DNA of 64,000 nucleotides. Origin: Chlamydiales bacterium. Its GTDB lineage: Bacteria; Chlamydiota; Chlamydiia; Chlamydiales; JACKPQ01. The stretch is from the NCBI GenBank assembly GCA_024233435.1, contig JACKPQ010000001.1:260829-324828 (forward strand), in the 5' to 3' direction. The translations under genes were made by a program, and so were the position numbers. Under the pieces are notes generated by a model. That model worked only from the letters and a program-made list of their open reading frames with translations, did not search any database and was not told where the DNA came from. This document shows positions 13,280 to 18,005 of the stretch, in pieces (the first letter of the stretch is position 1; the number at the start of each line of letters is the position of its first letter).

Positions 13280-16000
13280 ATGTCACAAAATAATAATGAT
13301 CCACAGAAAAAGAAGGGGTTCCCAGGCGGATTCTGGCTCTTCGTGCTTGCAGGTATACTCGTTTACCTAACAATGAGCAGCATGGGCTCGGAAAAGCATG
13401 CCAAAGTTGCCTTCTCACACCAGACAGAACATTTACAAAACCTTGATCTCACTCAAAAAGAAGAGAATAAGAAAATAGCAATTAACGACAAACTTGTGAC
13501 TTTTAGTGGAAAGTTTAAAACACAGCTAACTGAAAATGCCAAATCGCGATATAGATACCTCGAGCTGCTCAACCAAAATCATGAACTGACAAGATCTAAG
13601 GTGCGATTTTCAAGTGATTTAGATGCGTTGCGTGGCAATATTATTGAGGCTGCAGATACCTATTTGCACCTTAGTGGAATGCAGATTCCCCAAAAGGGCT
13701 ATGTCGTCGTTGATCCTGTTTACAATACGCATGAGCGCACAAATAGCATCGTGATTCAGCAATTAACGGGCCGGCAGACACCGTCTATCCCCAGTGCCTG
13801 GTCCACTTATGAAAAAGTTGCGGCGAATCCCAACGCATCCGATGCTCAAATCATGGGTCGAGATGTTCAAAGTCTAATCGCAGCTTTTCGCTCACCGACA
13901 CTTGGTATCGGAGATGAGTCGATAAAGACTCAACTCAAAGAACTTCAGGCACAAGTTGAGGCAGCCTCCAAACAATCTCCTGTTGAGCAAATGGGCGTTT
14001 ATAAGTCAGCGCTTACAGAGCTTGGAGGTGTTTCTAAAGCGCTCAATGCTGAAAAGCAGGGCGTGCGATTATTGCAACTTCGTTCTGTTCGCACTTACGT
14101 CGAAGATCTTAATCAATACTCAGCTGTGAGCGAGTCTTTAATTGATAACACTGCACTTTTAGATACTGCTCGCGCAAAAGTTTCTGATGTCATCTGGTTT
14201 TACAATAATCAAGAGATGTCGACACGCACGCTAGAGCAACAAAACCCTGAGCAATTTGGTCAATGGTTTGCTCAAGCGCAAAAAGAGTATACAGCCTTTG
14301 CGCAGAACCGGGGACTCGCTTTTAAAGCACCTGATCAACCACGCAACACTGTGCTTGACAAGACTTACACAAACGAGCAACCATCGCCTAACTATTTTAG
14401 CTATTTCATCACATTCTTGCCGATTCTACTAGGATTGTTCTTGCTCTATGTCATCTTTTCAAGGCAAATGAAAGGGTCTGCTGGCGGAGCTATGAGCTTT
14501 GGTAAATCACCAGCTAAAATGTTGACACGTGAGCAAATCAAAGTGACATTTAAAGATGTTGCGGGATGTGAAGAGGCAAAAGAAGAGCTCGAAGAGATCG
14601 TTGAATTTTTAAGAGATCCAGCAAAATTCACAGCTTTAGGGGCACGTATCCCTAAAGGCGTGCTTTGCGTAGGTTCGCCTGGAACCGGTAAAACGCTTGT
14701 GGCTAAAGCAGTGGCAGGTGAAGCGGAATGTCCATTCTTCTCTATTTCTGGATCGGACTTTGTTGAAATGTTTGTCGGTGTCGGCGCAAGCCGTATTCGC
14801 GATCTATTTGAGCAAGCTAGAAAAAACGCTCCATGTATCATCTTCATTGATGAAATCGATGCCGTTGGGCGTCAGCGTGGCTCTGGTATGGGCGGCGGGC
14901 ATGATGAGCGTGAACAAACACTTAACCAGCTTCTCGTTGAGATGGATGGATTTGATACCAAAGAGGGGATTATCCTAATTGCAGCAACAAACCGCCCTGA
15001 TATTCTCGATAAAGCCCTCTTACGACCTGGTCGTTTTGACAGACGCGTTGTTCTTGATCTGCCCGATTTAAAAGGACGTCTTGCCATCCTAAAAGTCCAT
15101 GCCAAGAAAATTAAACTAGCAGACGATGTTGATCTCATGGCTATTGCAAGGATCACACCAGGTGCATCGGGTGCAGATTTAGAAAACATGCTCAACGAAT
15201 CAGCTCTAATTGCTGCTCGTCGCAATAAGACCGCTGTTTCTAACGAAGATGTTCGCCAGGCGTGTGATAAAGTGCGGTATGGAAAAGAAAGACGCAGCCT
15301 TGAGATCGATGATAAAGAAAAGCGATTAACAGCCATTCATGAATCGGGGCATGCCGTTGTAGGGCTTGTTGTTGAAAATGGTGATCTCGTTGATAAAGTT
15401 ACGATCATTCCACGAGGTATGTCGCTTGGTGCTACACACTTTATGCCCAAGAAAAATCGCACGAATTACTGGAAAAAAGAAATTGTCGATCAGCTCGCAG
15501 TCTTGATGGGTGGTCGCGTAGCAGAAGAGCTCTATGCTGGAGACATCTCTTCAGGCGCCCAGATGGACATTCAGCAGGCAACAGGCCTTGCGCGCAACAT
15601 GATTTGCCGCTGGGGAATGAGCGATGAGCTTGGGTTAGTGGCCTATGAAGAGCAAAACGATGCCAACCAGTACCTTGGCGGTATGGGCATGGATCGCAAC
15701 TACTCTGAAGCCACCGCAAAAAACATTGACGAAGCTGTTAAAAAGCTTTTGCAAGAGGCACATGATCGTGCAATAGAAATTCTCAAAGCTAATGAAGCAA
15801 AAGTATTGCTTATGACGGACATGCTCATGGAATTTGAGACACTTGATAAAGAAGATATGAAAGCGATTATGGAAGATAAGTGGAATTCTGAGGAGAAGCG
15901 CAAAAAGCTAAAATTTGATGCTGATCAAAATATCCGAAAGGAACCTCCGCCGCCGCCAAAGATAACACGCCCTATTGATCCTAATCCATCTCCTGCGTAG
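13280..16000 (+). CDS. ftsH: ATP-dependent zinc metalloprotease FtsH with a long periplasmic insert
   Basis: Walker [19 protein letters not shown], Walker [13 protein letters not shown], and zinc site HESGHAV. About 350 aa lie between the two TM segments, as in chlamydial FtsH. Confidence 0.95.
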
Positions 16001-18005
16001 CCGTAGGTTTGCTGTTGATGATAAGGCTCATTTTGCTAAGCGTCTGATCATCTACTGTCCAGTTTAGCTGTTCAGTTAGCGCTTGATACTCAGATCGGAT
16101 TTTCTCGGCCTCCTCTTTTGTTTTAGCCTTTTCTACCCGCTTCTTAACATGTGTCAAGAGTATTTTTTTGGGATCAAAATCGACTTCAAGCGTCATAGGT
16201 AGACTTTCTAAAGGCGAATGCTCATGCACGGGATCTATTTTGGCGCTTTCAAGAAACTCTTGATATTTGCCATAACTGAATACAAACGCGAATAGGTTTT
16301 CCTCTTTGAGATTTTTTTTCATAGCTTCTCTAAGCTCAAGGAGCCTTTCCTGATTCTTCTTCTTTATTAAATCTGCGTAGGGGTCATTGCGAATGTCCAT
16401 TAAACATTCAATATACTCGAAGGTGTCTTCTGGGTTGTCCTTTTTGGTTTGATCAATAGCTTGTTCAACTCGCTTTGTTTTAATGAGCTTTTGATCAGTA
16501 GTTCGAAGAGAGGTTCCTCCTAGGATGGAGGTAAGCGTATTGATTATATCTTGATTAACATTTAGATCTTTAAGGGTTTTGGCAATAGATGCGAAGGGTT
16601 TTCCTTCAAATAGCGGGGTGCGGTCATCTATATCAATTTTTTCCAGCATAGCCTCAACCCTTGTTATTGAAAAACCTTCAAACATAAGGAAGAGGCCCTT
16701 TTGCCAAATTTCTGCTTCTACTTTAAAAGTAATACCCTCAGTGGTTGACCAATAATCATCGGGGTAGTGCTCAGCAAGGAGTTCTTTAAAGTAGTCAATT
16801 TCTTGAGCATAAAAATGCTTGATAAAGCGCATGATGGCAGAATCAATCGCTTCCTTAGAGACAGCCTCTTCAAGAGCCTGCCGGTATTTAAAAGTCATCA
16901 GGACTTCATCCTTGACCAATTCAATGAGGCCCATTGCCATTGGTTCTGTGCTTACATGTCTTAGCAATTCTTCAACAGAATCATATTCGGCTTTGGTGAC
17001 GAAGACGCGAGCGTATGCCCGAATTCGCGCGAGAAAATCTGGTGTCAATTTAGTTCGTTGCAGTTCAACTCGCTTTGATTTAATGAGCTGTTGATCAACA
17101 GGTCGAAGAGAATTGCCTTGTAGGATAGGGATAAGCGTGTCGATTATTTCTTGGTTAACGTTTTGATTTTTAAGAGCATTTCCCACAGATTCAAAGGAAT
17201 GCCCTTCAAAGAGAGGCGTGTGGAGTTCTTGACCAATTTTTTCCAACATAGCCTCAATGCTTGTTATTGAAAATTCTTCAACCATCGTGAATAGGGCGTG
17301 TTTCCAAGCATCCGATCCTGTACTAGAAGGAATGTTCTCGTTTTTGAGTTTATAATCGTCGGGGTAGTGCTTAGAAAGAAGTTCTTTAAGTTGGGCAATT
17401 TCTTGAGCATAATAGTGCTTGATAAAGCGCATGATGGCAGAGTCGATTGCTTCTTTAGAGACAGCCTCTTCAAGCGCCTGCCGGTATTTAAATGTCATTA
17501 GGAGTTCATCCTTAACTAAATTAGTATAGCCCAAGGGCATCCTCGGTTCCTTGTTTAAATGGCCCAGCCATTCTTCAGCAGAATCATATTCGGTTGATGT
17601 TGTAAAGGAGCGAGCATATGTTCGAATTTGCGCGATAAGATTTGGTGTTAATTCGGTATGCCGTATTGACTTCAACTTGGCTAGCAATTGTTTTCTTTGT
17701 TCATGTAGTGTTTTCACTTTGTTGCAACATTGAAGCAGAGCGACTTCCAGAGGATTGTCAGGATCTGCAACTACACCCTTTAATTCGGATAACATGTTTT
17801 CAATTGTGAAGTTAGGCTGCGAGACAACTTCCATAAGATTTTTGATTAGGAAGCTTACTTGTCTACTCGCAACTGTTTTGGGTTGGTCAAAAAATTGGCT
17901 TTGTCCGAAAATAAGCATAGCCAGACAAGCGATCGGCCCGAATTCGGAAGGTTTGAAAGCGGTTGTAAAACTGTTTCCTGTTGGAATTGAAAAGGCAGGT
18001 TGCAT
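15981..18005 (-). CDS. Large hypothetical protein with an internal ~200-aa tandem duplication (effector-like)
   Basis: Long ORF. ATG 18005 is preceded by GGAG. Two ~200-aa units share long identical stretches, for example MTFKYRQALEEAVSKEAIDSAIMRFIKH. No known motif. Confidence 0.7.
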   Translation of the reverse strand: MQPAFSIPTGNSFTTAFKPSEFGPIACLAMLIFGQSQFFDQPKTVASRQVSFLIKNLMEVVSQPNFTIENMLSELKGVVADPDNPLEVALLQCCNKVKTLHEQRKQLLAKLKSIRHTELTPNLIAQIRTYARSFTTSTEYDSAEEWLGHLNKEPRMPLGYTNLVKDELLMTFKYRQALEEAVSKEAIDSAIMRFIKHYYAQEIAQLKELLSKHYPDDYKLKNENIPSSTGSDAWKHALFTMVEEFSITSIEAMLEKIGQELHTPLFEGHSFESVGNALKNQNVNQEIIDTLIPILQGNSLRPVDQQLIKSKRVELQRTKLTPDFLARIRAYARVFVTKAEYDSVEELLRHVSTEPMAMGLIELVKDEVLMTFKYRQALEEAVSKEAIDSAIMRFIKHFYAQEIDYFKELLAEHYPDDYWSTTEGITFKVEAEIWQKGLFLMFEGFSITRVEAMLEKIDIDDRTPLFEGKPFASIAKTLKDLNVNQDIINTLTSILGGTSLRTTDQKLIKTKRVEQAIDQTKKDNPEDTFEYIECLMDIRNDPYADLIKKKNQERLLELREAMKKNLKEENLFAFVFSYGKYQEFLESAKIDPVHEHSPLESLPMTLEVDFDPKKILLTHVKKRVEKAKTKEEAEKIRSEYQALTEQLNWTVDDQTLSKMSLIINSKPTATQEMD
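16464..17681 (-). repeat. Two tandem copies of a 600-bp coding repeat
   Basis: The sequence at 16801 onward (tcttgagcataaaaatgcttgataaagcgcatgatggcag) recurs at 17401 onward with few changes, so the period is exactly 600 bp. Outer limits are approximate. Confidence 0.85.

Follow-up and report, generated by a model that had tools for sequence, protein, structure and literature searches.

The window considered here, a 64,000-nt stretch of a metagenome-assembled genome (MAG) of a Chlamydiales bacterium (assembly GCA_024233435.1, contig JACKPQ010000001.1, positions 260,829-324,828), carries between ftsH and pnp a gene for a 674-amino-acid (aa) orphan protein. To judge from its sequence, the gene is real, codes for protein and is of the expressed type; it is confined to one chlamydial lineage and has been found, so far, in one genome. 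The two-domain architecture of the encoded protein can be traced to one in-frame 600-nt tandem duplication that was followed by one 1-codon indel. As to the function, we favor a scenario in which the protein would leave the bacterium by way of the type III secretion system (T3SS) and, once inside the host cell, would serve as a bivalent adaptor or scaffold whose two binding modules resemble each other, either together with the Ser/Thr protein kinase encoded next to it or in parallel with this kinase. The anatomical part of this reading is nearly certain; for the whole statement, including a lineage-restricted two-domain gene and a type III-exported host adaptor, we put the chances somewhat short of even.

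The reality of the gene has to be considered before its function. The open reading frame (ORF) on the minus strand spans 15981..18008 and encodes 675 aa if counted from a TTG, as in the ORF list. The ATG at 18005, which is the codon next to this TTG and has a GGAG 8 nt upstream, is the likely translation start and gives a product of 674 aa; the frame indicated in the original prediction is confirmed, whereas the length of 675 aa stated there has to be reduced by one residue. The NCBI product is the same 674 aa (MCP5491653.1, "hypothetical protein H7A40_01245"). The frame stays open over ~2 kb in DNA of ~40% GC and is preceded by a ribosome-binding site, and the deduced protein, of 78 kDa, is acidic (pI 5.5) and, by its sequence features, soluble. 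With its stop codon and last six codons, the gene overlaps the 3' end of ftsH, which is convergent with it, by 20 nt (15981-16000); since the C-terminus of FtsH is kept in relatives, it is the 3' end of the orphan gene that appears to run into older sequence. The strongest evidence that the gene is real comes from the block LMTFKYRQALEEAVSKEAIDSAIMRFIKH (29 aa), which occurs twice in the protein (aa 169-197 and aa 369-397): the corresponding DNA segments differ at 8 of 87 nt, and all eight differences are synonymous. Such a pattern, with identical blocks that differ only at synonymous sites, points to purifying selection rather than to recent gene conversion.

The limits of the duplication could be fixed by self-comparison, as had been suggested. 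The best self-offset of the protein is 200 aa, with 120 identities as compared to ~50 at any other offset, and the best self-offset of the DNA is 600 nt. The comparison of the DNA with itself yielded three direct-repeat blocks (Table 1) that are collinear and together link 16463-17050 with 17063-17653. At the protein level, the repeat units comprise aa ~106/116-315 and ~306/316-516, respectively, and show 61% aa identity over 205 aligned codons, with a single 1-codon indel between them. Of the "exact 600-bp duplication" claimed originally, the period of 600 nt and the in-frame tandem arrangement stand, but the copies are only 74% identical in nucleotide sequence and one stretch is spaced by 603 nt; the near-identical peptide quoted at that time is the 29-aa block described above and is indeed present in both copies. 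Tandem Repeats Finder (TRF) was silent on this repeat, the longest TRF period being 500 and the repeat period 600. The C-terminal region (aa 517-674) shows no significant similarity to the repeat units, and neither degenerate extra copies in the N- and C-terminal regions nor sub-repeats within a unit were detected above shuffled controls.

Comparison of the two units indicates how they have evolved since the duplication. The proportions of differing synonymous and non-synonymous sites are pS 0.38 and pN 0.22, which correspond to dS 0.53, dN 0.26, and dN/dS 0.49. The constraint is, however, very uneven along the unit: in aa 170-199, pN is 0.00-0.02 at pS 0.42-0.46, whereas in aa 210-239 pN between the units reaches 0.34-0.46. 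At the level of codons, this pattern shows that both copies were held under selection ever since the duplication, such that the amino acids of the predicted core helices remained invariant while synonymous sites diverged, and that the putative loops and the first helices of the units drifted or diversified.

A time scale is provided by Chlamydiia Co_bin.61 (GCA_030433395.1), the nearest sequenced relative, whose homologue of the window kinase is also found in a 922-kb ENA contig. Its FtsH, PNPase and TilS are, respectively, 93%, 94% and 72-73% identical to those encoded in the window. The order of genes in its interval is pnp - kinase - kinase - ftsH, with 95 bp between the second kinase and ftsH; the orphan is absent from this interval, and the DNA homology between the window and the relative ends at the ftsH stop codon. 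The synonymous divergence between the two genomes is saturated (dS of 2.07 for ftsH, 1.70 for tilS and 1.20 for pnp). Given that dS between the repeat units is as low as 0.53, the duplication is dated by its synonymous sites to well after the split of the window lineage from its nearest sequenced relative. The relative, in turn, has its own repetition at this place: its two tandem 370-aa kinases (L001 10001-12390; also L002, L003, L005) are 92% identical with dS 0.25, and this pair is the product of a recent whole-gene duplication, younger even than that of the orphan unit.

The wider comparison shows how variable this interval is. Scanning of the GTDB species genomes with FtsH gave 47 chlamydial loci, 30 of which have pnp in range of ftsH; the reference genomes of Chlamydiaceae, Parachlamydiaceae and Waddliaceae were not returned by the pattern scan. 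Over the 30 loci, the gap between ftsH and pnp ranges from 119 bp (L034, a chlamydial MAG) to 7.0 kb (L009), and the two genes are mostly convergent. In the next-closest genome (L006, FtsH 75%), the slot (12543-15119) is occupied by genes for a small methyltransferase, a 248-aa LRR protein, and a different Pkinase-domain protein, which is encoded on the opposite strand and has an acidic Ser/Asp-rich tail; these slot genes are effector-type as well. In many chlamydial genomes, among them Rhabdochlamydiaceae, Simkania and other groups, a gene for a class II aminoacyl-tRNA synthetase of ~600 aa directly follows pnp; it consists of tRNA-synt_2 and an anticodon OB domain fused to a YbaK-type tRNA_edit domain (L011 15197-17008), and similar ORFs of ~600 aa are found in L009, L012, L013, L017, L023, L028-L030, L046, L047 and L051. 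In the lineage of the window, the synthetase is not at the pnp-adjacent position. Assorted unannotated ORFs accompany the synthetase in many loci, and in L039 two co-oriented 283-aa ORFs without a Pfam match (12949-13800, 13919-14770) are located in the ftsH-pnp slot; these may represent another tandem gene duplication. The orphan was found neither by tblastn, phmmer and profile searches over the 47 ftsH loci nor among 4,141 stop-to-stop ORFs from these loci that were compared with the orphan and the unit profile (best E 0.17). As far as the 47 loci and the nearest relative show, the orphan does not belong to the conserved core genes that chlamydiae have in the ftsH-pnp region. The suggestion that the orphan and the kinase are a lineage-specific insertion, and not an arrangement common to all chlamydial families, agrees with the presence of two kinases in the relative and with the varying content of the gap. 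As judged from these loci, the ftsH-pnp interval is a variable slot, and the orphan is apparently specific to the lineage of the window.

Searches beyond the chlamydiae gave no homologue either. In 5.8 billion protein clusters, a word-indexed search retrieved nothing but the orphan itself, and the orphan was the sole accepted match in an exhaustive phmmer search of 1.84 billion representatives, which stand for about 15 billion proteins. Two phmmer matches at E ~3e-4, to lengthy and strongly repetitive proteins with PAS/GAF repeats and with a ~75-aa repeat array, respectively, were rejected as summed-repeat noise (3 and 10 matched stretches). For the orphan, there was nothing above threshold in Pfam, NCBIfam or PADLOC (0 PADLOC families), no match to the PDB by sequence and none by profile at E <= 10, and no homologue in a scan of JGI metagenome contigs. 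A profile search that started from the alignment of the two units recovered nothing, not even the source protein, and is given no weight. The best Pfam match was to PF13327 (T3SS_LEE_assoc); the full protein scores 20.9 bits and unit 2 by itself 14.5 bits, at a cut-off of 25. In each unit, 35 residues (aa ~356-389) align with profile positions 78-112. Because this score is below the cut-off, involves only some one fifth of the profile and results from the summing of repeats, it is treated as chance. The common repeat families TPR, ANK, ARM/HEAT, Sel1, LRR and spectrin showed neither a profile match above cut-off nor a fold match to solved structures. The original assessment that no family could be recognized holds in all these searches, which also yielded no homologue with a housekeeping function. 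The family thus appears to be new, with nothing similar to it in sequence or in predicted fold, but, as an accessory protein that is a singleton, contains an internal duplication and comes from an environmental chlamydia, it is of a familiar kind. In a chlamydial pangenome, 25,886 of 37,380 gene families, about two thirds, are singletons (PMC8242063), and a further singleton of this sort, a hypothetical protein from a chlamydial MAG, is, in itself, ordinary.

Modeling of one unit, one of the checks proposed at the outset, gave a helical domain. The AlphaFold2 (AF2) model of unit 1, with unit 2 as the only alignment partner, has a mean predicted local distance difference test score (pLDDT) of 78.2, a predicted template modeling score (pTM) of 0.74 and 11-12 helices; pLDDT is ~90 across the invariant block and drops under 50 in two places only, the linker (residues 1-11) and the variable loop (unit residues 118-123). 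Foldseek found no fold match for unit 1 in the PDB (best E 0.38, TM 0.22) or in BFVD (best E 0.12, TM 0.18), so that, by its model, the unit looks like a compact all-helical domain that has no recognizable fold relative among the PDB and BFVD structures. Determining the structure of such a domain, which is modeled with confidence but unmatched in its fold, would be a reasonable undertaking. The AF2 model of the full-length protein is also uniformly helical, with ~30 helices. In keeping with the helical character and the missing signal peptide noted from the start, the protein shows no transmembrane segment (the maximum Kyte-Doolittle 19-residue mean is 1.19, within aa 14-40), the weak hydrophobic patch at aa ~22-35 being under the transmembrane level. 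By a crude hydropathy scan, the first 17 residues (MQPAFSIPTGNSFTTAF) have neither the basic n-region nor the hydrophobic core of a Sec signal peptide. The bilobed hydrophobic domain of ~40-60 residues that characterizes Inc proteins is not present either, as there is no second lobe and the remainder of the protein is hydrophilic. Residues 2-26 consist to 40% of Ser, Thr and Pro and to 8% of charged residues, as compared to the window medians of 16% and 22%; in this crude compositional test, the N-terminus of the orphan is the most extreme among the 52 window ORFs that are 150 aa or longer, with the highest share of Ser/Thr/Pro and the lowest charge.

The role of an exported effector or adaptor is plausible owing to this uncharged, Ser/Thr/Pro-rich N-terminus and the lack of a transmembrane segment, the composition of the N-terminus being the one direct hint at export; the T3SS itself is encoded in the core genome of chlamydiae (PMC8242063). 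Several considerations weigh against the favored scenario. The composition of an N-terminus is a weak predictor of type III export. The model of the unit was built on an alignment of two rows, and the single-sequence AF2 model of the full-length protein is poor (pLDDT 38) and was left out of the fold search. The dN/dS value for the two units is high and fits also with partly relaxed constraint, and the nearest relative lacks the orphan, which means that the gene is dispensable for the basic life cycle. Finally, co-orientation with the kinase gene is no proof of an operon or of a functional link, and a scan for promoters and terminators gave counts that were not above shuffle expectation.

The neighboring kinase deserves attention in its own right, since the two genes share their surroundings. 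The kinase gene is upstream of the orphan and co-oriented with it, 65 nt apart, and the GC content across both is 0.39-0.42 as compared to 0.44-0.52 in ftsH and pnp. At the borders of the interval, we found no terminal inverted repeats, no tRNA genes and no integrase or recombinase genes. The kinase has two close homologues, and beyond these its best matches are eukaryotic calcium-dependent protein kinases, one of which is from the ciliate Blepharisma; this similarity hints that the host may be a protist. The N-terminus MTYLNKINN is common to all three homologues, so the start should be placed at the ATG at 19480 (469 aa), and the 431-aa start given by NCBI is too short. The orthologue in the nearest relative is 60% identical by BLASTP and 59% identical when aligned globally in full, and dN/dS for the orthologues is 0.17 as compared to 0.02-0.03 in housekeeping neighbors, which are 93-94% identical; by these rates, the ftsH-pnp slot appears to evolve fast. 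Close to the N-terminus, the kinase contains a 48-aa repeat that is present in three tandem copies in the window, in one copy in the kinases of the nearest relative and in two copies in P0004 (44% identical). Three possible relationships of the orphan were tried and rejected: a former kinase copy (no similarity, in any frame, to the kinase of the window or to the second kinase of the relative); a relationship of the orphan unit with the 48-aa kinase repeat (hhalign probability 0.1%); and a positional homologue in a 64-aa gene fragment on the 1.7-kb contig L004, where it follows a kinase gene (44% identity of the product), a fragment that is similar by eye but reaches only z <= 1.9.

The proximity of the two genes could also be taken to mean that the orphan is not secreted but stays in the bacterium as a substrate of the kinase, a regulator, an anchoring partner, or half of a two-gene defense or stress module. 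We consider this unlikely. Apart from the co-orientation and the short distance, it is favored by the likeness of the kinase core to the profiles of defense kinases, namely, PADLOC mad6 (84 bits) and PD-T4-6, and MADS6 in NCBIfam. However, the kinase matches these profiles only over the generic catalytic core (aa ~320-415), with 41 bits against an NCBIfam cut-off of 460, and none of the PADLOC systems mad6, PD-T4-6, Stk2 and MkoA can be assigned, the orphan being without a match to any PADLOC model. The affinity of the kinase, outside its clade, to eukaryotic calcium-dependent kinases also speaks against this reading, and the sister genome keeps its kinase in the absence of the orphan, which indicates that the kinase is independent of the orphan.

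An equally unlikely explanation is that the orphan is a young, transient gene of little or no function, recently acquired or newly arisen, neutrally enlarged and heading for loss. The lack of a counterpart among about 15 billion proteins and in the sister species would be expected for such a gene, as would be the dN/dS of 0.49 for its units as compared to 0.02-0.17 in neighboring genes, the GC content below that of the flanks, and the stop codon 20 nt inside ftsH; moreover, singletons make up most of the chlamydial gene families, as mentioned above (PMC8242063). It is difficult to reconcile with neutrality, though, that 674 codons were kept open across a duplication with a dS of 0.53 and that long blocks in both copies show zero non-synonymous change at pS 0.4-0.46; the predicted compact fold of the unit points in the same direction. 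An origin from new sequence meets an additional obstacle, as a 95-bp spacer like that of the relative cannot yield 1.4-2 kb, and no frame of the orphan resembles the kinase.

A bolder version of the favored scenario, to which we give distinctly less credence than to either of these two alternatives, is that the unit represents a new all-alpha fold, which either originated in the lineage or was taken over from a protist host yet to be sampled, and was then doubled into a bivalent adaptor paired with the kinase; such a protein could, for example, recruit two copies of a host substrate to the kinase, and the pair would then be an undescribed effector module seen shortly after its birth. An artefact, whether from wrong assembly of the repeat, from chimerism of the MAG contig or from over-calling of the ORF, can practically be dismissed: the source is, indeed, a MAG and the single genome of its species, but the copies differ at 26% of their nucleotides, so that an assembler cannot confuse them, the gene is interior to a 726-kb contig of the "Chlamydiales bacterium" MAG, between syntenic chlamydial genes, an independent assembly (a Logan contig of SRR12358676) contains the identical 674-aa ORF with the same neighbors, and the codon-level pattern of selection matches the translated frame.

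The features of the locus are collected in Table 1; the position of the orphan between ftsH and pnp, with the kinase alongside, is confirmed by the Pfam assignments of its neighbors.

Table 1. Coordinates of the orphan gene, its internal repeats and the neighboring genes within the window
Feature	Position	Strand	Remarks
tilS	12230-13177	+	Pfam
ftsH	13280-16000	+	Pfam
Orphan gene	15981..18005	minus	674 codons + stop; stop at 15981-15983; ATG at 18005
Unique C-terminal region, aa 517-674	15984..16457	minus	~158 aa, helical, acidic (pI 5.15), hydrophilic
Repeat unit 2, aa 316-516	16458..17060	minus	DNA copy 16463-17050
Repeat unit 1, aa 106-315 (core 116-315)	17061..17690	minus	DNA copy 17063-17653
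Unique N-terminal region, aa 1-105	17691..18005	minus	
Direct-repeat block 1	16463-16733 / 17063-17333		Spacing 600; 75% identity
Direct-repeat block 2	16752-16940 / 17352-17540		Spacing 600; 85% identity
Direct-repeat block 3	16942-17050 / 17545-17653		Spacing 603; 75% identity
Ser/Thr protein kinase	18071-19480	minus	Pfam; 469 aa, eukaryote-like
Three tandem 48-aa (144-nt) repeats in kinase, aa 29-172	18965-19396	minus	
pnp	19595-21877	minus	Pfam
Putative rpsO, 93 aa	22056-22337	minus	By position; Ribosomal_S15 at the matching place in the nearest relative
tadA-like deaminase	22432-22950	+	

Some other features of the window may be mentioned. Downstream of the putative rpsO and upstream of pnp, a strong 12-bp hairpin flanked by runs of A and T is found at 22021-22049 on the minus strand, which resembles the classical arrangement of an rpsO terminator and pnp leader. 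A 334-aa ORF at 45659-46663 (+) contains a protein-tyrosine phosphatase domain of the eukaryotic type (PF00102, E 1e-16) and is a further candidate host-interaction gene in the window. Just before it, at 41909-45601 (+), genes for an amino-acid permease and a pyridoxal-dependent decarboxylase follow each other, a pair that resembles the antiporter/decarboxylase pairs of the glutamate-decarboxylase type. At 163-5047 (+), the window contains genes for subunits of a haem-copper quinol/cytochrome oxidase (COX_ARM, COX1) and for a UbiA-family prenyltransferase similar to haem O synthase, which together imply an aerobic respiratory chain in this chlamydia.

If the orphan is, indeed, an exported host adaptor, the pnp-ftsH slot would be a small, well-delimited site at which environmental chlamydiae try out host-interaction genes. 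The slot shows three separate tandem duplications, namely, those of the 200-aa unit of the orphan, of the 48-aa unit of the kinase and, in the sister species, of the whole kinase gene, and it would make a clean, datable example of effector-type proteins growing by duplication. The locus is, therefore, of more interest than the orphan alone. The slot is comparable to the classical plasticity zone of chlamydiae in that a conserved frame, here tilS-ftsH and pnp-rpsO, holds different lineage-specific genes; it differs from that zone in its location, in the absence of marks of mobile elements at the ftsH-pnp borders and in that a housekeeping synthetase is kept here in many genomes.

Among individual proteins, a parallel is offered by repeat-containing chlamydial T3SS effectors such as TarP, which is lineage-variable, has neither a Sec signal nor a transmembrane segment and contains a number of tandem repeats that varies between strains or species and presumably multiplies the binding sites for host factors. 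The orphan shares with TarP the variability among lineages, the lack of a Sec signal and of a transmembrane segment, and the internal tandem repeats. The repeats of TarP, however, are ~50 aa in length and largely disordered, whereas the unit of the orphan is a ~200-aa domain, predicted to be folded and helical, that is present in exactly two copies; furthermore, the orphan has no sequence similarity to anything, and its export is proposed from sequence features. Known kinase effectors, namely, LegK1 of Legionella (NF043056, 49 bits) and XopAU of Xanthomonas (NF041408, 19 bits), are matched by the catalytic core of the adjacent kinase, not by the orphan, with scores far under the cut-offs of these families (550 and 450 bits). 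From the eukaryote-like kinase effectors, the orphan is set apart by the absence of kinase similarity in any frame; what it does share with the kinase next to it is the slot, the orientation, the GC content and the pattern of repeat expansion.

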